A stretch of DNA of 20,096 nt from a virus: the UHGV virus genome UHGV-1724231; one strand, 5' to 3'. The notes under the pieces were generated by a model. That model saw only the letters and a program-made list of their open reading frames with translations. It ran no database searches and was not told where the DNA came from. The translations under genes were made by a program, and so were the position numbers. The number at the start of each line of letters is the position of its first letter. Positions within the stretch are counted from its first letter, which is position 1. Shown one piece after another: positions 2,969 through 18,158 of this stretch.

Positions 2969-3376
2969 ATGAAGACTGAAACAAAACATATTAATGGTAA
3001 GAAGGTGACAATTATCCTTCTTGGTGCAAGAGATGGTATCAAAATTTCTATGAAGCTTGGTAAGGTCGTTGTACCCACCTTTGCTCAGATGATTACCAGT
3101 CTTGCTGGTAAAGATGAGAATCCAGAAGCTCCTAAAGTTCCTTTCAAAGAACTGGTAGAAGCTTGCTTTGACAGAATTGATGAGTTAGATATTGACTCAA
3201 TGGCAGAATTACTATTTCAGGGGGCAACTGTTGATGACTTCCCACTGAAAATTGATAGTTACTTCCAAGCAAACTACGGTGAATTTATTGACTTCTTAGC
3301 CTTTGCTTTGGAGGCAAACTTCGGAAGTTTTTTCGAGGCAAGCATTTTCAAAAGCCTAACTTCTCAGGAAGCTTAA
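2969..3376 (+). CDS. Tail assembly chaperone (G-like, upstream frame)
   Basis: 135-aa acidic ORF between tube and tape measure genes; contains in-frame T_TTT_TTC slippery heptamer near its 3' end. Confidence 0.6.
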   Translation: MKTETKHINGKKVTIILLGARDGIKISMKLGKVVVPTFAQMITSLAGKDENPEAPKVPFKELVEACFDRIDELDIDSMAELLFQGATVDDFPLKIDSYFQANYGEFIDFLAFALEANFGSFFEASIFKSLTSQEA

Positions 3377-3612
3377 AGTATGTTATGCAGACCCCGCTGA
3401 CTGACGGGGCTGTAGAATCAACTTATGAAGAAGCAGATGAGATGAAATTTGTGCTTGCCATTTATGGAATGGAAGGGTGTAAAGAAACACTCGACCAACT
3501 TTTCTCAATGACTTTCGTTGACCTATTATCTCTTCGTCAATATCTGGAAATCCAGAAGTCATACAAAGAAGAAATGGCCTATAACGAACTCAGAAAGGCA
3601 GGTAAAATTTAA
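3328..3612 (+). CDS. Tail assembly chaperone -1 frameshift extension (GT-like product; listed ORF 3385..3612)
   Basis: -1 frame is open from the slippery site at 3328-3334 through the 75-aa ORF to TAA at 3610-3612, which overlaps the ATG of the tape measure gene. Confidence 0.5.
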   Translation, partial: FFRGKHFQKPNFSGSLKYVMQTPLTDGAVESTYEEADEMKFVLAIYGMEGCKETLDQLFSMTFVDLLSLRQYLEIQKSYKEEMAYNELRKAGKI

Positions 3613-5846
3613 TGGCACAGTATACAGTTGATAGTTTTATTGTGGAACTTGGATTCAGTGAAAAGGTTGTAAAAGGTTTACAGAGAGTTGAAAAGATGGC
3701 TATGCAATCTGCTCAACGCATCGAAAGAAACATTAACAAAGCCTTTGACGTGAAGCCTAATAAAAGTTCTCAAGAAGCTCTAAACAGACTTGTTAAAAAC
3801 GCTCAGACTGCTTCGGGCAGAATCAATAAATCCCTAAACAACGCTCTCAATTTAGATTCTCAAGGTGTTAAATCTCTACGTAAATTAGAGACACAAGGGA
3901 AGAAGACAGCCAAAGAAATTAATAAGGCTCTAAGACAAGCTATGAACGTTGACGGTAAAGTTAATATTCGTGGTGGTGCTGGTAGAGGTCGTGGGAATAC
4001 CGTTCCCCCAATGGGTGGAGGTTCACCAAGAGTTAGACCTGATATTGCTCAGAGACAAATGGAAAGGATGTTTAATAACAACTTCTACTCTGGTCTTACT
4101 CGTCGTCTTGAAACTATTGGTGGACAGGGTAACCAAATGGCTGCTTCTTTCAGAGGCAACTTGCAAGGAATCTATAACAAGTATAAAGGGAGTGGTAAGG
4201 TTGGTGAATATGAGATGGAAGTTAAAAAACTCATTGACACAACCAAACGTTGGGTTATTGCAGAAAATGCTAGAATCAAGGCAGTCAAAGAATCAGCTTG
4301 GCTACAGGATAGAGCAAACTCTTCACTAAGACAGTTAATTGGTGGTTTTGTTTCTGCCTATGCTTTGTTAGAATTAGCTCAGAAGACCATTGATGCAGGT
4401 GTTAAAAGACAGTCTGCACAGTTAGCCTCTACAGCTATCTTTGGAGCAGATACACAGCAAGCTAGAATGTTCGCTGCTACATTCTCTCACCAGATTGGTC
4501 AGAACTACACAGACACTATGAAGCAGTACTCAAACTTTGCTGCTGGTGCTCAACCTGCACTTGGTTTCAAAGGTACTCAGGAGTTCTATAAGAACGCTGC
4601 AATGTTCTCTCGTATTAGAGGGGCATCTGATGAAGACTTGAAAGGTATCATGGTTGCTTTCCAGCAAATGGCATCTAAGGGTAAAGTTCAGGCTGAAGAA
4701 CTTCGTGGTCAGTTAGGTGACCGTTTGGCAGGTGCTGTTCAGTTGTTCTCTGATGCTATTGGTAAGACTCCACAAGAACTTGATAAGTTGATGCAGGATG
4801 GTAAGCTACTTGCTAAAGACGTTCTTCCAAAAGTCTCTGAGAAGATGAGAGAATTGGTTGACGCAGCAGGTGGTATGAATGCTGTATCTAAGCAGACTGC
4901 TACATCAATGGGTCAAGCAAAAGCTATGTGGGATAACACCTTAGTGGCTCTCTTCAACAACTCTAGTGATGGTATCTCACAGTTGTCTAACTCCGTTGCA
5001 ATGTTCTTGCAAGGTTCCCTTGGGACTACTGAAGCTCTTGGTACTGGTATTGGCTACCTGTTAAAAGGTGCTAGTAACCTTCTGGACTTCATCACAGATA
5101 TCATGTATCGAATCTCTGGACTGTACTACCTAGCAATGGGATATTACAGTGATTTAGGTGCAAGTCAACAGAAACTTATCAAGGAATCTGCTGAGTTAGT
5201 TGCAACGTTTACTGCTATCGGTGTTGCAATTGCAGCTATCACGAAAGTTGCTAAAATCTTCGGTGGTACTGTAGCATTTGTCAAGAGTATTTTTGAAGAA
5301 GGTATCTTGGCTAAGATTGCTCAAAAGCTTGGTCTGACAACCGCAGCAGAGACAGTAGCTACAACGGCTGGTGTAACAGGAACTAGAATGGCTCTTGGTG
5401 TAGGTGGTTCTGCACTTATGCTTTCAAGTTCGGCTGACCCAAATGCTGGGAAGAGATTTAGTGATGTTAATACACCAAACCCTTTCAACGAAGCTATTGC
5501 TGGGGTTACCAATGCTAAACGTCCGATGTTCTTTGACCAAAATGGACAGTTGAGGTTCGCACAATATACCACTGACACTTCTGGAAATATTCAGAGAGTG
5601 GATAATGGATTGTCAAATTGGGATATCATCATGAACAACCTGTCTGAGTCTTTAAACAACTTTGCAACTAAGTTTAACCAGACACCAATGATGATGAGTC
5701 CGTCTGGATTCCCATTACAAACTAAGCAGACGCTTAATGTTTCCTTTAATCTGGATGGTAAGCAGATTGCTAATAAAATGGTGGATATCACTAATAAGAG
5801 TCAGGAAGATATTCTGTTAAGTTCTAGCTACCCAGAGGATGAATAA
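3612..5846 (+). CDS. Tail tape measure protein
   Basis: 744-aa ORF, largest in the tail module, Ala/Gln/Lys-rich with Gly-rich segment ([17 protein letters not shown]) and hydrophobic C-terminal segments; immediately after the chaperone pair. Confidence 0.75.
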
Positions 5847-10495: not shown

Positions 10496-11353
10496 ATGTT
10501 TAAAAAGATTGAAAACTTTTATGAGAAAACATTGGACGAAAGAACTGTAACTCAATTCAAAGACAAGTTTATCTACACAAGCCTATTGAAATCTATCACA
10601 GATGAGTTACAATTATTAGAGGATATTAGTAATCAGTTATATACTGAAAGGAATATTCGTGTAGGTGTTGGCACACAACTTGATAACATCGGGGCTTTAA
10701 TTAAAGTCCCTAGACCTATTGGTGCTGATGATGACACTTACAGAGCTATCCTCTACATTCAAATTTTCTTAAGACGTTCTGACACTACACCAAGCTTTTT
10801 ACAAAAAGCTGTCATGACTCTTTACGATGCCTCATTCAGCCAGATTTTTGAGCATATTACGCCAAAGACTGGTGGGATTGTTGTCCGTGTAAACACTCGT
10901 AATAATGTGTTAGATACAGCATACACGCTTTCTAAGATTGCTGCAACAACTATTGGTTCAGCAGTTATCCTTAGAGATGTTACCTTAAATGGTACTGCTT
11001 GGACTCCTGTAGAGGTTGCTGATTCATCTCTGGCAATCACTGATGAGAGCAACAACTGGTTCGTAACCAACACTAACAAGGGTCTAATTACGAACAACAC
11101 AGGTGGCTCCCTAGAAGCAAATAAATTAGGTAGTTTTGCAGATGCAGGTGTAAGAGATGGTTATGTCAGAGTTGATAAAACTGGTGGCAGTGCCAGTAAA
11201 GATTATTTAAAAGTCAGCAAAACAAACAATAGCAACGACTATTTTATTGCTGGTAAAGAAACAGTAGCGGGTGGTGATTATGGGGTTATGGCAGAAGTCG
11301 CCCAAATCGTCAAAGGCAGAAAAGATAAATCTCAACAAGAAGGAAGTTCATAA
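10496..11353 (+). CDS. Baseplate wedge / tail-fibre attachment protein (gpI-like)
   Basis: ORF track starts at 10457, but ATG at 10496 has a perfect AAGGAG RBS 7 nt upstream and lies just after the upstream stop (10491-10493), so 10496 is the likelier start. Confidence 0.5.
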
Positions 11354-11652
11354 TGTCTCTTTCATGGTCTACAGACACAGTGGATGCTGATGGTAACCAG
11401 CTTAAAGTTTTACCACCTCCAGAAATTCAAGCCACTGGCCTATTAAGGGGTGAGCCTATGGGTCGTCAGTGGTTCAACTATATTATCAACTATTTGCTTA
11501 ATAAAGTAAATGGTACTGTTGGAGAGGTTCGTTCATTTGCTACGGAGCAACCTGATTTAGTTGCCAATGGTTGGGAATTAATTGACACAGTAACAGGGAC
11601 TGCACACACCAGCACTACTAACCTTTACACATATGAATATAAAGGGAGCTAA
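11353..11652 (+). CDS. Hypothetical tail-fibre-associated protein
   Basis: 99-aa ORF, TAATG coupling, immediately upstream of the first fibre gene. Confidence 0.4.
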
Positions 11653-11654
11653 TA

Positions 11655-12353
11655 ATGGCAGTCGGTGAAATTCAAATTAGTGCATTACCTCAAGCCTCAT
11701 TACCTATTGATTTAAGTGATATCTTTCACCTTAAGCAAGGTATTGAGGATAGGCGATGCACACTTGAGCAATTACTTGCTCCACACGCATCTTTGAGAAA
11801 TAACCCACACGGTGTTACAAAGGTTCACGTAGACCTTGGGAATGTTGTTAACGCACTCCAATTGGTGGCTGCTAATAACTTGTCAGATGTGGTCAGTGTT
11901 GAAGAGGCTAGACAGAATCTTAATATTCTATCAAGTGATGAAGTCAATACTCTTATCCAGAACCACATTAATGACAAGAATAATCCTCACAACACCAACA
12001 AGATTCAAGTAGGTTTGTCTAATATCCAAAACTGGACATATTCAAACTCTTATTCTGAAGATGCTGATAAGTATGCTACTGCAAAAGCTGTGAATGCTTT
12101 ATATAGAGCTATTCAGGATAGCTATCCAATTGGTACTATTCATTTATCAGTTAACCCTGCGAACCCAACTACATATTTACTTTGTGGTGGTACTTGGGAG
12201 TTAGTTTCTAAAGGAAGGTCTCTTGTTGGTTATGACACAGATACAAGACCTGTAGAATCAGTATTTGGTTCTGCTACTGCAACACTTACACAAAATAACA
12301 TTCCAAGTCACACACACTCTGTGTTGCTGGGCACTCTCATAATGCAACAGTAG
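11655..12353 (+). CDS. Tail fibre protein, N-terminal and shaft part (frame interrupted near 12320)
   Basis: AAAGGGAG RBS; two copies of the NNPH-x-TK-x-V-LxN fibre repeat motif; ends IPSHTHS… then TAG, while homology continues in the -1 frame. Confidence 0.6.
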   Translation: MAVGEIQISALPQASLPIDLSDIFHLKQGIEDRRCTLEQLLAPHASLRNNPHGVTKVHVDLGNVVNALQLVAANNLSDVVSVEEARQNLNILSSDEVNTLIQNHINDKNNPHNTNKIQVGLSNIQNWTYSNSYSEDADKYATAKAVNALYRAIQDSYPIGTIHLSVNPANPTTYLLCGGTWELVSKGRSLVGYDTDTRPVESVFGSATATLTQNNIPSHTHSVLLGTLIMQQ

Positions 12354-12820
12354 TAATTTCTAGCTTTGACTATGGGATTAAGAACACATCAAGTTTTGAT
12401 TATGATTCTAAGGCCACAAATGACTCTGGAAGCCACGCTCATAACGTTAATGGTTCTGTAAGCAGTGCTGGTAGTCACAGCCACAGGATTCCATTGAGGG
12501 GTTCTGACAGGGGTGGTGTGAATGCTATCACAGCATCGGCTGATGCAGGTATTGGTAATGCGTCATATACAGACTTTGATGGGGTTCATACACATACATT
12601 CAACGTTAACTCTTCAGTTGGTGGTAACCACTCCCACAGTGTGTATATTGGAGCACATGGACACAGTGTTGTAATTGGTTCGCATGGACACTCTGGTACT
12701 GTGACAGTTCAATCTTCTGAACACACTCACTCAGGCACAACTGGTGCATTTGGTGCTGGACAAGCATTTAATATTGAGCAACCTTCTTATGTTGTATATG
12801 TTTGGAAGAGAACTGCGTAA
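12299..12820 (+). CDS. Tail fibre His-rich C-terminal tip domain (frame 2; ORF track lists 12494..12820 from a TTG start)
   Basis: Frame open from 12299; encodes repeated HxH motifs (GHSHN, SHAHN, SHSHR, HTHT, HSHS, HGHS, HGHS, HTHS) and a C-terminus resembling that of the 791-aa fibre (…VWKRTA vs …AWVRTA). Confidence 0.55.
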   Translation, partial: HSKSHTLCVAGHSHNATVVISSFDYGIKNTSSFDYDSKATNDSGSHAHNVNGSVSSAGSHSHRIPLRGSDRGGVNAITASADAGIGNASYTDFDGVHTHTFNVNSSVGGNHSHSVYIGAHGHSVVIGSHGHSGTVTVQSSEHTHSGTTGAFGAGQAFNIEQPSYVVYVWKRTA

Positions 12821-12830
12821 TTATTTTATA

Positions 12831-12848
12831 AGGGGCTACACAGCCCCT
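12831..12848. other. Intergenic hairpin between the two fibre genes
   Basis: AGGGGCT-acac-AGCCCCT, 7-bp perfect stem with 4-nt loop; no downstream U-run on + strand, so not a classical terminator. Confidence 0.35.
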
Positions 12849-12865
12849 AGAAAGAGGATTTATAA

Positions 12866-15241
12866 ATGGCTGAATATAAGCTAAGTGAGCTAAACAGTAT
12901 TGACACAGTTCGCTCAGAAGATTTACTTCACCTAAGAGTTATCAAAAGGTCTGATATGCTTGGTGATGAAGACCGTAAAATGACCTATGCAAATTTCCTT
13001 GCCTCTTTCAAACTAGAAAGATTCTTACAACTAACTGGTGGAGATATGGTAGGGAATCTTGGCATCGTTAAATTAAGATACGGTGGAAAAGACTTATTAG
13101 ACCCAACAGGTTCTTCTGAGGTTATTCTTGGTGATACTGCCAAAACCTTTAGAATTAATGCGAGTGCTTTAAGATTAACTGTAAACGATGCCACAAGGTC
13201 TGCAACAGTTTATCACACACTTAATAAACCATCTCCTAATGAATTAGGTATGAGAACTAATACTGAAAATGATACAAGATATGCTATGAAGGAAACTGAA
13301 AATACTTTCTTGGCAAGACAAATCATTAATATCAACGGTGTTGGTCTAACACTTAAAAGCATCTTACCAGATGGTGGAGCATATATTGAAGCAAGGGATT
13401 CAAATAATGCTTTAAGATTCACAGTTGGTAACTTGACTTCTAGTACTGATGTTACATTAGTTAATAGTAAGGGTGCTACGTTGACTCTTGGCACAAACTC
13501 TGTTAGTGTTGATAAGAATTTTGAAATCAATGGTCAGGTTCAGCCTAATAACTGGAATAACCTTGATGCAAGATTCTTTACACAGACTGCTGCTGACCAG
13601 AGATTTGCAAAACTTAATGCAAGTAATAACTTTATTGGGGTTAACAACTTCAATGGTAAGACTTATGTTATTGCAGATAGTAATGCACTTAACTTAAGAG
13701 CGGTTACAGAGAATGCTGCATTATTTATGCGTGGTTATAACAGTGCTGGGACAGGAACTTGGTATGTAGGTCAGCCAGATGGTACACAGTCTGAGATTGT
13801 TTTAGCAAACCAGATGACAAATGTTAACTTGAAAATTGCTACAGAGTTTTCATTTAACAAAGCTATCAATGTAGCTGGTCAGGTAAAACCAAGTGACTTT
13901 TCTAACTTTGATACAAGATATGTTCCAAGCTCTTTGACGAACGTTCTTGCAAGAACTAATGCTGCAAACGTTTTTACTAGTCCACAGACTATCAATACTG
14001 ACAGCGACAATCCTTTTAGACTACAGGCAACAGCACAAGACTCTGGAATCTACATGTCTGCACATAATGCTAATGGGAGCAGGAGATGGTGGTTGGGTAT
14101 TGGTGATGCTGGTCAAAACAATGTGGTACTTAACAATGATGTAACAGGAAAGGCAATCAATATTGGTACTGATTTAGATGTGAATACACATGTGAATATT
14201 GTTGGACAAGTAAGACCAAGCGATTGGTCAAACTTTGACTCAAGATACTACACACAATCTGCTTCAAACTCAAGATATATGTTGTCTGGTGTATCTGGAA
14301 CGGGAACAGAAGTTGGTGATACAACAGGTATTGCTTGGAATTCAAAAACAGGTTTGTACAGTGTTACAAATTCAACTGGTGGGTCTACTCACTTAGTTTA
14401 CCAAATGTACCTTGGAGTTGGTGCATCTACACCGACTGCACAGTTTAAATTTAACTACAAGAATACTGGAATCTATTATAGAACAGCAAGGGATGGATTT
14501 GGTTTTGAAGAGGTTTGGGCTAAAATCTACACAGACCAAGACAAACCTACACCCTCTGAACTTGGTGCTTACACCAAGGCTGAAGTAGACCAACGTATTG
14601 CTTCCGCTGTAACTGATGCTACAGACCTTAAGAAAGTGTATCCAGTTGGTATTGTGACGTTCTTTGCTTCTAATGTCAACCCAAATACAGCTTTCCCAGG
14701 CACTACTTGGACTTACTTAACTGAGGGTGCAAACAGAACTATTAGGATTGGTTCTGAAAATGGCTCTGATGTGAAAGGTCTTGGTGGTGCTGATACGGTT
14801 GCATTAAGTGTTGGTCACATCCCTGCACACACTCACGGCTTCTCTGGGACAACTTCTTGGTTTGACTATGGAACTAAGTACACAGATGGTCAGGGTGCTC
14901 ACGACCATGACAGAGGTAATATGGAAATCTCTGGTAACTTTGGATGGTTTAGAAGTGATAATAACTCGTTCTACGTTGCAGACGGTGCTTTTGCAATGAG
15001 TGGTAGCCAAGGTGGGCATAGCTGGACAGGTTCTAACTTCACTTATGGTGCGCCAGTTAACTTCTATGCTTCCAGAACTTGGACAGGTAGAACAAGTTGG
15101 GTAGGTGCTCATGCCCACGGTGTAGGTATTGGTGGACACAACCACACATTCAGTGGTGACACTGGTGCGACTGGTTCTGGTGCAGCATTCAGTGTTCTTA
15201 ACACTTACATTAAACTAATGGCTTGGGTAAGAACTGCATAA
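12866..15241 (+). CDS. Tail fibre protein (large, receptor-binding candidate)
   Basis: 791-aa ORF with AAGAGGA RBS; about four tandem ~110-aa repeat modules; His-rich C-terminal tip (HIPAHTHG, AHDHD, AHAHG, GHNHT). Confidence 0.7.
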   Translation: MAEYKLSELNSIDTVRSEDLLHLRVIKRSDMLGDEDRKMTYANFLASFKLERFLQLTGGDMVGNLGIVKLRYGGKDLLDPTGSSEVILGDTAKTFRINASALRLTVNDATRSATVYHTLNKPSPNELGMRTNTENDTRYAMKETENTFLARQIININGVGLTLKSILPDGGAYIEARDSNNALRFTVGNLTSSTDVTLVNSKGATLTLGTNSVSVDKNFEINGQVQPNNWNNLDARFFTQTAADQRFAKLNASNNFIGVNNFNGKTYVIADSNALNLRAVTENAALFMRGYNSAGTGTWYVGQPDGTQSEIVLANQMTNVNLKIATEFSFNKAINVAGQVKPSDFSNFDTRYVPSSLTNVLARTNAANVFTSPQTINTDSDNPFRLQATAQDSGIYMSAHNANGSRRWWLGIGDAGQNNVVLNNDVTGKAINIGTDLDVNTHVNIVGQVRPSDWSNFDSRYYTQSASNSRYMLSGVSGTGTEVGDTTGIAWNSKTGLYSVTNSTGGSTHLVYQMYLGVGASTPTAQFKFNYKNTGIYYRTARDGFGFEEVWAKIYTDQDKPTPSELGAYTKAEVDQRIASAVTDATDLKKVYPVGIVTFFASNVNPNTAFPGTTWTYLTEGANRTIRIGSENGSDVKGLGGADTVALSVGHIPAHTHGFSGTTSWFDYGTKYTDGQGAHDHDRGNMEISGNFGWFRSDNNSFYVADGAFAMSGSQGGHSWTGSNFTYGAPVNFYASRTWTGRTSWVGAHAHGVGIGGHNHTFSGDTGATGSGAAFSVLNTYIKLMAWVRTA

Positions 15242-15249
15242 TTACCTTA

Positions 15250-15278
15250 TTGACTAACTGTCAAGATGGTGTTAATAT
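15250..15278 (+). promoter_or_regulatory. Sigma70-like promoter (TTGACT-N17-TAATAT)
   Basis: -35 TTGACT at 15250-15255, 17-nt spacer, -10 TAATAT at 15273-15278; lies in the gap after the fibre gene, about 50 nt upstream of ATG 15328. Confidence 0.5.
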
Positions 15279-15327
15279 TTCTTAGTAGGTATTCTCACCA
15301 TCTTGGCTCAAGAAGTAAGGTGATTAA

Positions 15328-15522
15328 ATGCCAACCATTCTAGCAATCCTCTTGAAAAATCTTGGGGCATTCTTCTGGAAGCTTCTACTTTCTCTTCTTA
15401 GCGAATATATGATTGAAAAAGTGTTCTTCAAGCTTGCAAGATACCTTGCGAGTAAAACAGACACACCTATTGATGATGAATTTGTAGATACCTTGGAAAA
15501 GGCTTTTAAGGGTGAAAAATAA
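15328..15522 (+). CDS. Small hydrophobic/amphipathic protein (holin- or membrane-associated candidate)
   Basis: 64-aa ORF with a hydrophobic N-terminal half (ILAILLKNLGAFFWKLLLSLL) and charged C-terminus; AAGG RBS; stop overlaps the next start. Confidence 0.45.
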   Translation: MPTILAILLKNLGAFFWKLLLSLLSEYMIEKVFFKLARYLASKTDTPIDDEFVDTLEKAFKGEK

Positions 15523-15896
15523 TGAAGTGGATTGAAGAGGCTTTTAAGAACAACATTGGTGCAATTGTTGTAGGTATTTTCAGTGTAATTGGTATGTACA
15601 CTACGATGCAGGTCTCTGATGGAAAGCAAGAAGTTTCTATAAACACAAAGTTACAACAGTTGGATGGTTACTCAAAAGGTAACTATTCAGCTATTCGTGA
15701 TTTACAGTCTGATATGAAACTCCTTCAGTTAGGGATGGAGAACCAGAAAGTGCAGCTAGAGAACGTTAAAGGGGAAAACGCTAAGTTGACCAAAACCCTT
15801 GATAAATTCTCAGATAGTGTGAACAACTTAGCACAGTCTGTATCAGCTTTACAAGCAATTACCGAACAAAATACACAGAATGCTAAAAAGAAATAA
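15522..15896 (+). CDS. Membrane-anchored coiled-coil protein (i-spanin-like candidate)
   Basis: 124-aa ORF with one N-terminal transmembrane segment (IGAIVVGIFSVIGMY) followed by a heptad-like Q/L/K/E-rich region; followed by a terminator. Confidence 0.45.
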   Translation: MKWIEEAFKNNIGAIVVGIFSVIGMYTTMQVSDGKQEVSINTKLQQLDGYSKGNYSAIRDLQSDMKLLQLGMENQKVQLENVKGENAKLTKTLDKFSDSVNNLAQSVSALQAITEQNTQNAKKK

Positions 15897-15900
15897 TGCT

Positions 15901-15928
15901 AAGGCTCCCGTAAAAAGGAGCCTTTTTT
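15901..15928. terminator. Bidirectional rho-independent terminator between convergent transcription units
   Basis: AAGGCTCC-loop-GGAGCCTT stem followed by TTTTTT on + strand; on the - strand the same hairpin lies just 3' of the thymidylate synthase stop and is followed by a U-rich tract. Confidence 0.7.
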
Positions 15929-15932
15929 GTAT

Positions 15933-16832
15933 CTACTTACCTACTGACAATGGAGCTTCAATCTTACCAGCATGTCGGTAATCTTTCAAGCCACCTATAA
16001 AGTCACTTGCTGTTAAGTGCTTCAGGTCACCAATACTGTTTAACTCAATATCAATATCAAACTTCGGTGCTGGGAACTCTTCGTTACCTAACAACTGATA
16101 GACTTGCTGCATATGGTTCAGGTAAATCTGGGTATCACCAAAAGTACCAACCAGATAACGTGGAGTTAAACCTGTCATCTTACAAAGCACATGTAGGATA
16201 AACCCATAAGATGCAATATTAAAGGGCAAACCTAAAAATGTGTCGCATGAACGCTGATACCATTTCAAGTCAACCTCTCCAGTATTCGAGATATAAATCT
16301 GGAAAAGTACATGACAAGGGGCTAATGCCATAGAGTTGCTTGAGATATCTGCTGCATTCCATGCGTTAACCAGCATGTAACGGTCTGTAGGAGACTTTTT
16401 CATCTTATCCACAAGATTACTCAACTGGTCAACGACAACCCCACCATGCCCCTCAAAAGCCCTCCATTGGACACCATAGATTCGTCCACCTGCATCTTCC
16501 AACCAATCATTTTCAGTTGCATAGGTTGTCTTTAACCAACGTTCAAAATCATCTGTCCAGATAGTCCAACGCTCTCCATCGTTCTCTCCCCAAGTTCTGT
16601 AACGTAAATCACCCAACTTGTTTTCACCATTCAAAAACCACAATGCTTCACCTAAAACTTGACGCATGAAGGTTTGCTTTGAAGTGATTAATGGGAAACC
16701 ACTACGCATGTCAAAACGAAACTCTGGAGGTGCAAACGTTGTAACAACCTTTCCAGTTCTTGTTTTACGTTCTTCCCCAACAGAAAGAACATGGTTGAGA
16801 ATCCCTTTGTAACTTATATCTGCTTGTGACAT
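15933..16832 (-). CDS. thyA: Thymidylate synthase (ThyA family)
   Basis: 299-aa ORF with ThyA hallmark motifs: RTG…GFPL(I/V)T(S/T)K, ALAPCH (catalytic Cys), YQRSCD-FLGLPFNIASY (Asn in FNIAS indicates dUMP specificity); AGAGGA RBS. Confidence 0.85.
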   Translation of the reverse strand: MSQADISYKGILNHVLSVGEERKTRTGKVVTTFAPPEFRFDMRSGFPLITSKQTFMRQVLGEALWFLNGENKLGDLRYRTWGENDGERWTIWTDDFERWLKTTYATENDWLEDAGGRIYGVQWRAFEGHGGVVVDQLSNLVDKMKKSPTDRYMLVNAWNAADISSNSMALAPCHVLFQIYISNTGEVDLKWYQRSCDTFLGLPFNIASYGFILHVLCKMTGLTPRYLVGTFGDTQIYLNHMQQVYQLLGNEEFPAPKFDIDIELNSIGDLKHLTASDFIGGLKDYRHAGKIEAPLSVGK

Positions 16833-17699: not shown

Positions 17700-18158
17700 T
17701 CACACTAGGAAATCTTCAAAGTGTTTTGGTATAAAACTTAGGAAATCCATAGAACCCAAATCACCTACTAAGCGAATGTAATAATCGTTCTCGCAAGTTG
17801 CATTAACTACATGTCGGCCTATGTATGGCTTCACAACCTCTCTGATATCATCTATGAAGATGTTCAGAAGAGTTTTGAAGGATTTAGGGTACTGAGTTCC
17901 TCCATACAAGTCAATGCTTGCTTCAGTCTTTACAGAGATTGATTTAGCATCTCTGAACTCAGTTGCGAACAGATGAGCAGGAAGAATACAAAGTGAGTCC
18001 CCAGTATCTTCATCAACCAACTCAATAGTTCCTGCATCATAGTTTGTTTTAATCAGTATTTCACCTTCTTGTGACTTTTTGGTTTCAAGGTGAGTGGTGA
18101 TAATACCTCTCAACATTGATGCTTCTGGGAGCAGTAAGTTGATTCCAATCTTTTGCAT
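17700..18158 (-). CDS. Hypothetical protein
   Basis: 152-aa ORF, coupled to the upstream gene (1-nt gap); no recognisable motif. Confidence 0.5.
   Translation of the reverse strand: MQKIGINLLLPEASMLRGIITTHLETKKSQEGEILIKTNYDAGTIELVDEDTGDSLCILPAHLFATEFRDAKSISVKTEASIDLYGGTQYPKSFKTLLNIFIDDIREVVKPYIGRHVVNATCENDYYIRLVGDLGSMDFLSFIPKHFEDFLV

Follow-up and report, generated by a model that had tools for sequence, protein, structure and literature searches.

In the 20,096-nt stretch of virus genome UHGV-1724231 analysed here (hereafter, the window), two tail-fibre genes stand one after the other on the plus strand. We identify them as the short tail fibre (STF) and long tail fibre (LTF) genes of a Mooglevirus, and we expect each product to form a homotrimer carrying a receptor-binding tip of the type found in gp37 of bacteriophage T4, a reading to which we assign a probability of about 0.85. 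It is carried by the homology that links the two tips with one another and with the T4 gp37 tip (PDB entry 2XGF), by a collar domain that is split in both proteins, and by the register and conservation of their His-any-His (HxH) motifs. The STF gene, as it stands in the window, is interrupted by a 10-bp frameshifting deletion, which may be either an assembly artefact or a genuine recent null allele, the two being roughly equally likely.

The window is made up of the module for tail, baseplate and fibres of a FelixO1-like phage belonging to Mooglevirus, a genus of myoviruses in the subfamily Ounavirinae. Over positions 11300-15300 its DNA is 98.1% identical to that of Shigella phage ESh22 and 93-96% identical to that of the Sf13-Sf19, KMM2 and SFPB phages, and over 19.9 kb the identity to ESh22 is 98.97%, with only three indels. 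Gene order matches the annotations of ESh22, Sf17, KMM2 and FelixO1 and follows the two-fibre synteny of the Ounavirinae: wedge genes, a small platform gene, an STF of ~390 aa, an LTF of ~790 aa, two small open reading frames (ORFs), and td and frd on the opposite strand. The LTF matches phrog_4277 across its full length and the Pfam families gp37_trimer (three times), gp37_C and Gp10_C. When the missing 10 bp are restored, the STF becomes a 391-aa protein whose sole difference from the ESh22 fibre is K246R. Near their N-termini the two fibres carry the motifs EDRRCT and EDRKMT, respectively; this pair has been noted in the Sf14 proteins gp52 and gp53, where EDR(R/K)(C/M)T was assigned to the baseplate-binding region (PMC11821841).

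The relationship between the two tips goes well beyond a common richness in histidine. STF residues 153-391 and LTF residues 588-791 were aligned by BLASTP with composition adjustment at E 1e-13 (28% identity over 242 columns), and comparison of the family alignments (49 STF and 33 LTF-tip homologues) with hhalign returned a probability of 100% and E 1.8e-52 over 289 columns. The non-His anchors YP(I/V)G, NP.T, GTW, LP.H.H, FDYG(T)K, GSG.AF and W.RTA are collinear in both tips. The pairwise alignment that the sequence-only reading had proposed as a check thus points to homology and not to composition alone, and the similar endings of the two fibres (...W.RTA) were found where that reading had placed them. 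It had also described an HxH-rich C-terminal portion of ~160 aa; the motifs are indeed present in both proteins, but the shared module is longer, beginning at the conserved YP(I/V)G collar motif, with the STF version measuring ~240 aa and the LTF version ~204 aa.

Both tips also match the T4 gp37 tip. STF residues 147-363 align with residues 19-228 of the 2XGF chain at E 1e-22; LTF residues 632-767 do so at E 4.5e-4, improving to 1.8e-14 when the LTF-tip family profile is used. The parallel with T4 gp37 drawn beforehand is therefore borne out, and the link is one of homology rather than of analogy. Matches to the C-terminal domain of T4 gp10 (2FKK; E 3e-7 for the STF) and to the Pfam family Gp10_C (PF21939) concern the collar. 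Against a curated cut-off of 27 bits, Gp10_C scored 65.1 bits with an intact STF homologue, 30.1 bits with the LTF tip and 50.7 bits with the shortened ORF of the window. On the STF the match falls in two halves around the His-rich insertion, the first spanning residues 156-222 (profile positions 5-78, E 4.8e-13) and the second reaching the last residue; on the LTF, residues 589-789 span profile positions 3-138, again around the insertion. Since both proteins match Gp10_C to its final profile position, the ...W.RTA ending common to the two fibres would correspond to the last strand of the collar; within it, W387 and R389 are invariant in the alignment of 49 STF homologues. Gp12 binds one Zn through an HxH motif; no gp12 chain was found in PDB sequence searches with the STF, the LTF and the LTF-tip profile, and the resemblance to gp12 is at the level of fold only.

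The HxH motifs themselves form ladders. The STF has nine, at residues 219, 230, 264, 278, 315, 329, 338, 347 and 360, and the LTF has four, at residues 655, 679, 749 and 758. In 20,000 shuffles of each tip, the mean number of HxH was 1.4 for the STF, with nine reached in none, and 0.44 for the LTF, for which the observed four correspond to P = 4e-4. Seven of the STF motifs (230, 264, 278, 315, 329, 338 and 347) are aligned pairwise by HMMER with those of T4 gp37 (883, 915, 929, 966, 980, 989 and 998), and the successive spacings are 34, 14, 37, 14, 9 and 9 residues in the STF as compared to 32, 14, 37, 14, 9 and 9 in T4. The two additional STF motifs lie in the collar (residue 219, IPSHTHS) and past the last rung (residue 360, EHTHS). 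The LTF ladder is a reduced form of that of T4, with one HxH in the collar (655), a single rung on the ascending side (679) and a pair on the descending side (749 and 758). The LTFs of FelixO1 and Michonne have six HxH each; judged from the alignments, the LTF subtype shared by Sf14, ESh22 and the window appears to carry a 67-aa His-poor segment (residues 682-748, HDHDRGNMEISG...ASRTWTGRTSW) in place of two head-proximal rungs and a small head. In the 49 STF and 33 LTF-tip homologues, the histidines of the HxH motifs are near-invariant and constitute the most conserved columns.

Could the likeness of the tips nonetheless be a matter of composition (Gly/Ser/His), or the product of a recent duplication or gene conversion in this genome? 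G, S, T and H abound in the tips, and a 50%-identical stretch (166 bits) common to the two tips of FelixO1 may be a trace of partial exchange within its lineage. However, the BLASTP and profile-profile alignments with their collinear non-His anchors contradict a compositional origin, and a recent event is contradicted by the all-against-all comparison of tips. There, the STF tips of Mooglevirus and Felixounavirus are 52-58% identical and form one orthologous group, the LTF tips, 49-63% identical across genera, form a second, and the STF and LTF tips within a Mooglevirus genome are only 26-29% identical, as against 49-58% to their Felixounavirus orthologues. Moreover, T4 gp37 outscores the LTF tip of the same genome when compared with the STF tip (86-92 versus 53 bits). 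We therefore consider both versions of this alternative refuted and their probability very small. Because identity between orthologues exceeds that between STF and LTF within a genome, and in view of the T4 gp37 score, the paralogy of the two tips is old, predates the split of the genera and has been maintained since. The duplication or module exchange suggested earlier thus stands in so far as the tips are paralogous, but the event is old and subfamily-wide rather than particular to this genome.

The tip is also widespread outside this group of phages. With tblastn, the module was found in 769 phage records, and P2-like tail fibres encoded in genomes of Erwinia persicina, Photorhabdus and Providencia also bear tips of the LTF type. 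The head subtype of the LTF (residues 679-751, positions 14900-15118; HDHDRGNMEI(S/T)G...ASR.WTGRTS) is shared with 290-aa sequences of uncultured Caudoviricetes annotated as 'baseplate protein'. Because LTF-type tips are found on P2-like fibres and on proteins of uncultured phages, the tip behaves as a widely exchanged module.

These features suggest the following architecture. Each fibre would be a homotrimer anchored by its N-terminus on the baseplate wedge. In the tip, each chain would first build half of a collar domain of the gp10/gp12 type, then extend as one strand of a thin, six-stranded needle, form a small distal head and return, so that its last beta-strand (...W.RTA) closes the collar. 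The HxH motifs of the three chains would meet on the three-fold axis, where six imidazoles could hold one metal ion in octahedral geometry (Fe2+ in T4), and the metal ions would act as staples in a needle whose thinness leaves no room for a hydrophobic core. Both tips are accordingly predicted to bind metal, the STF through seven T4-equivalent sites and possibly through the two extra collar-adjacent motifs. Head loops at the end of the needle would contact the receptor, which in relatives is the outer core of the lipopolysaccharide (PMC11821841); in the STF the presumed head comprises residues 281 to 314 (12485-12586). Since HxH motifs number no more than four in the LTF, and its head segment has about double the length, the two fibres probably recognise different surface structures.

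Several observations weigh against this architecture, or at least against the role that it gives to the LTF tip. The LTF has only four HxH, and the 67 aa in its middle are without counterpart in 2XGF. AlphaFold2 monomers, predicted with the family alignments, were poor (mean predicted local distance difference test score 66 for the STF and 57 for the LTF tip, falling below 50 in the distal needle and head). A Foldseek search of the PDB with the low-confidence STF monomer gave weak matches only, the best being T4 gp10 (E 0.015); the Bizionia protein C24 scored E 0.2, none was below E 0.01, and 2XGF was not among the 50 matches listed of the 53 at E <= 10. Owing to this outcome, the assignment of the fold rests on sequence and not on a structure match. 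Finally, variation between the window and ESh22 in the LTF is concentrated away from the tip, in a knob (residues 475-586) related to the S domain of the phage Mu tail fibre (8JU3, E 5e-22 with LTF residues 475-581): nucleotide identity is 83-85% over positions 14296-14563 (residues 477-566) and ~100% in the rest of the gene. As a result, the tip may not be the sole or main determinant of specificity, and host specificity may reside in the knob, beyond the HxH tip alone. KMM2 is 98-100% identical to the window across the knob, and the Sf17 LTF diverges elsewhere, at residues 361-447 (43-68%) and in the tip head at residues 686-744 (65-72%). The LTF is thus a mosaic with respect to its relatives.

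Comparison with characterized systems places both fibres in a known family. In T4 gp37, D11 (residues 882-1009), comprising stem and tip, is inserted into the collar domain D10 (811-881 and 1010-1026); seven axial iron ions are each held by the HxH of three chains, and the substitutions H929A and H931A are lethal (PMC6957217). The fibres of the window share with it sequence homology, a collar split by a His-rich insertion, a final strand predicted to return to the collar, the duplicated (S/T)SFDYG(T)K repeats and, in the STF, the seven HxH in the same order and at nearly the same spacing. They differ in that the STF has two further HxH beside the collar, and the LTF has four HxH and a 67-aa His-poor head where T4 has ~34 aa between the flanking HxH. 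The T4 collar is filed under Pfam Collar (PF07484) and the collars described here under Gp10_C, and the T4 long fibre is made of four proteins whereas each fibre here is a single protein. T4 gp10 shares the collar halves with both tips but has no HxH (it reads NPSHTAG) and no needle insertion. The knob recalls the S/S' tail fibres of phage Mu, but in the LTF it is followed by a gp37-like tip of ~200 aa. In contrast to T4, no gp38-like gene adjoins the fibre genes. In a search of the flanks for T4-type chaperones (gp38, gp57A), the genes at 11353-11652, 15328-15522 and 15522-15896 matched only PHROGs of unknown function; dedicated chaperones are a trait of the T4 system and not of the fold.

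Closer to the window, the cryo-electron microscopy study of the Felixounavirus Bas63, an Escherichia phage (Sci Adv 2025), states that both gp26 (its STF) and gp27 (its LTF) terminate in a collar, an HxH needle and a head resembling those of T4 gp37; it counts seven di-His motifs in gp26 and six in gp27 (PMC12609058). Gene order and the two-fibre system are the same in the window, whose tips are 52-58% identical to their FelixO1 orthologues; the genus, the number of LTF motifs (four instead of six), the longer LTF head and the interrupted STF are different. In the Mooglevirus Sf14, a Shigella phage studied by cryo-electron microscopy (Commun Biol 2025), gp52 (391 aa) and gp53 (792 aa) make up two sets of fibres and were found in virions by mass spectrometry; gp53 has a T4 gp37-like distal tip and gp52 has C24-like and gp10 C-terminal-like domains (PMC11821841). 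The window shares with Sf14 the genus, ~94% DNA identity and the fibre lengths of 391 and ~790 aa, but gp52 of Sf14 is intact. The only HxH iron site considered in that study is the one in gp47, the central needle; the HxH ladders of the two fibres are not described there (PMC11821841). The GenBank record of FelixO1 labels both fibre genes 'putative tail fiber protein GP37'. The presence of two gp37-like fibres with HxH needles in the Ounavirinae is therefore already known, explicitly so for Bas63 and consistently with the Sf14 study and the FelixO1 annotation. What the window adds is a residue-level map of HxH motifs for Mooglevirus (seven plus two in the STF), the reduced four-motif ladder and enlarged head of the Sf14-type LTF, and one metagenomic frameshifted STF allele of uncertain reality; beyond annotation, its significance is small.

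The STF allele requires closer consideration. An Ounavirinae two-fibre system would be expected to have both fibre genes intact; in ESh22, Sf17 and KMM2 the STF gene is a single ORF of 1176 nt encoding 391 aa. In the window, the 10-bp deletion lies between the collar motif HTH and the first needle motif HSH and shifts the frame into a TAG stop at 12351-12353. The first ORF (11655..12353) thus encodes 232 aa, of which 225 are native and seven out of frame, and ends in ...IPSHTHSVLLGTLIMQQ. The -1 frame is open from 12299 to 12820, reads ...GHSHNATVV..., includes ...GHSHNATVVISSFDYG... and ends in ...PSYVVYVWKRTA. Both pieces match phrog_2097 back to back (profile positions 205-461 and 456-600). 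If real, the deletion removes the entire needle, the head and the closing strand, and would thus be a null allele. The earlier statement that one copy is disrupted is correct as to the sequence, which does contain the frameshift, but the disruption itself may not belong to the phage.

The origin of the sequence bears directly on this point. Exact protein matches led to the same sequence on a human-gut metagenome scaffold of 23.5 kb (ENA ERZ28622977, NIEL14-1_SAMEA1966253 scaffold_654), part of a short-read metagenome assembly with N gaps. As it differs from the window only by two N-runs and one single-nucleotide polymorphism (SNP), the window is a separate assembly of that sample or of one nearly identical to it. 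At the first gap (11454-11458) the window reads GCCTA, in frame and collinear with ESh22, where the ENA scaffold has 10 N; the SNP is at 16488, within the thymidylate synthase gene (A in the window, C in ENA). Exactly at the other gap, of 12 N, the window has a second frameshifting deletion relative to ESh22, of 8 bp. Its junction is of the same style as that of the STF deletion, a single T being shared, and the hypothetical protein that it affects is cut to 152 aa, as compared to 173 aa in ESh22. This second deletion looks like a collapsed scaffold gap and, for that reason, casts doubt on the STF deletion too.

We put at even odds the explanation that the STF disruption is an artefact of assembly and that the actual phage has an intact 391-aa STF like every sequenced relative. 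Besides the short-read, N-gapped nature of the gut-metagenome scaffold and the 8-bp deletion at a gap, which is one of the three indels relative to ESh22, this explanation is favoured by the otherwise pristine state of the gene, which differs from that of ESh22 at five nucleotides, four of them synonymous, and shows no further decay. The shortened STF belongs to a 31-member 90%-identity cluster in which, of the 15 members listed, the other 14 all have 391 aa; its 232-aa product was found only on the single ENA scaffold, and the deletion junction, searched as a degenerate 35-mer, was without match in IMG/VR viral contigs and JGI metagenome contigs. On the other hand, both assembly versions have the same junction with no N there, and a clean loss of 10 bp is atypical of base-calling error. 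The agreement of the two versions is weak evidence either way, since both may share the same underlying contigs. A contig from another run in Logan (SRR5621390_323; 1125 bp) encodes an identical 108-aa C-terminal piece of the STF; it starts ~18 bp downstream of the junction and is therefore uninformative on the deletion.

The opposite explanation, namely that an STF-null mutation arose recently in this gut phage, or in part of its population, and leaves it to use the LTF alone, we rate at somewhat short of even odds. The junction occurs in two versions that differ elsewhere (at the SNP and the two gap sites), and interrupted fibre genes have been deposited for other relatives: the KMM2 LTF is annotated as two coding sequences (3077..4867 and 4883..5452), and Shigella phage vB_SflM_004 has its fibres annotated in fragments (331 aa and 292 aa). 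In addition, classes of Bas63 particles with zero to six fibres suggest some tolerance to missing fibres (PMC12609058). Against a real deletion speak the lack of further decay, the uniqueness of the allele, the conservation of the STF as a virion component throughout the subfamily and the presence of another suspicious small deletion at a scaffold gap on the same contig. A Felixounavirus challenge study (PMC6669636) yielded no data on fibre frameshifts. It is still less probable, and in our view rather doubtful, that the deletion is genuine and marks a natural human-gut Mooglevirus that lacks the STF and infects by the LTF alone; if true, there would be at least one natural host setting in which the phage can do without one of its two conserved gp37-like fibres. 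A real allele would provide a small natural experiment on STF dispensability, relevant to host-range engineering of FelixO1-like therapeutic phages, and an artefactual one would serve as a reminder of the pseudo-pseudogenes that short-read metagenome scaffolds can generate.

Two ways in which the interrupted gene might still yield a fibre were rejected. The first, programmed -1 frameshifting or other recoding that joins the two pieces into a full-length protein, has next to no probability: the frames overlap at 12299-12353, where a -1 shift could in principle give back almost the whole protein, but this overlap holds no X XXY YYZ slippery heptamer and no homopolymer of four or more bases, the ORF of the relatives is uninterrupted and differs here by the 10 bp only, and codons L225-G229 would still be missing after the shift. 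The second, re-initiation of the C-terminal piece, would have to use as its first start a TTG at 12494 that has no Shine-Dalgarno sequence, and its product would lack the baseplate-binding end.

The coordinates of the fibre genes, of their parts and of the features discussed above are collected in Table 1.

Table 1. Fibre genes, predicted parts of their products and associated features in the window
Feature	Position	Strand	Basis and remarks
99-aa gene directly upstream of STF	11353..11652	+	phrog_4141, function unknown
STF gene	11655..12820	+	Homologue of Sf14 gp52 and Bas63 gp26; 391 aa when intact, here split by the 10-bp deletion
STF N-terminal motif EDRRCT	11745..11762	+	Read from the translation
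STF collar, N-terminal half (gp10/gp12-type), aa 154-225	12114..12327	+	Gp10_C and 2FKK matches; LPxHxH-type motif IPSHTHS, HxH at 12309-12317
10-bp deletion (TAACTGGTGG in ESh22, codons L225-G229)	12327/12328	+	DNA alignment with ESh22, Sf17 and KMM2
STF needle and head (putative), -1 frame	12329..12730	+	2XGF alignment and motif spacing; eight HxH, at 12332-40, 12434-42, 12476-84, 12587-95, 12629-37, 12656-64, 12683-91 and 12722-30
STF C-terminal return to collar (predicted; ...GTTGAFGAGQAFNIEQPSYVVYVWKRTA) and stop codon	12731..12820	+	Gp10_C profile positions 61-139 of 139
LTF gene	12866..15241	+	Homologue of Sf14 gp53 and Bas63 gp27; 791 aa, intact, ends NTYIKLMAWVRTA
LTF N-terminal motif EDRKMT	12968-12985	+	Read from the translation
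LTF knob, aa 475-586	14288..14623	+	Pfam gp37_C; homologous to phage Mu tail fibre S domain (8JU3 match)
LTF gp37-like tip, aa 589-791	14630..15238	+	Split collar, short needle, head, closing strand NTYIKLMAWVRTA (predicted); HxH at 14828-36, 14900-08, 15110-18 and 15137-45
8-bp deletion (TCACTTGA), frameshifting, in ORF 17700..18158	17705/17706	-	Alignment with ESh22

As to the surroundings of the two genes, the small gene upstream of the STF stands, to judge from gene order only, where Sf14 has gp51 and Bas63 its 'LTF platform' protein gp25. A perfect G+C-rich hairpin with a 6-bp stem (GGGGCT-ACAC-AGCCCC) occupies 12832-12847, within the 45 nt that separate the stop codon of the STF from the start codon of the LTF and shortly before the LTF ribosome-binding site; it has no T-run and was for this reason missed by the terminator scan. 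Promoter-like sites in 11200-16000 were not above chance, and the only convincing terminator there is a hairpin resembling a bidirectional intrinsic terminator at 15901-15924 (AAGGCTCC...GGAGCCTT), which has T-runs on both strands and separates the plus-strand late structural operon from td and frd on the minus strand.

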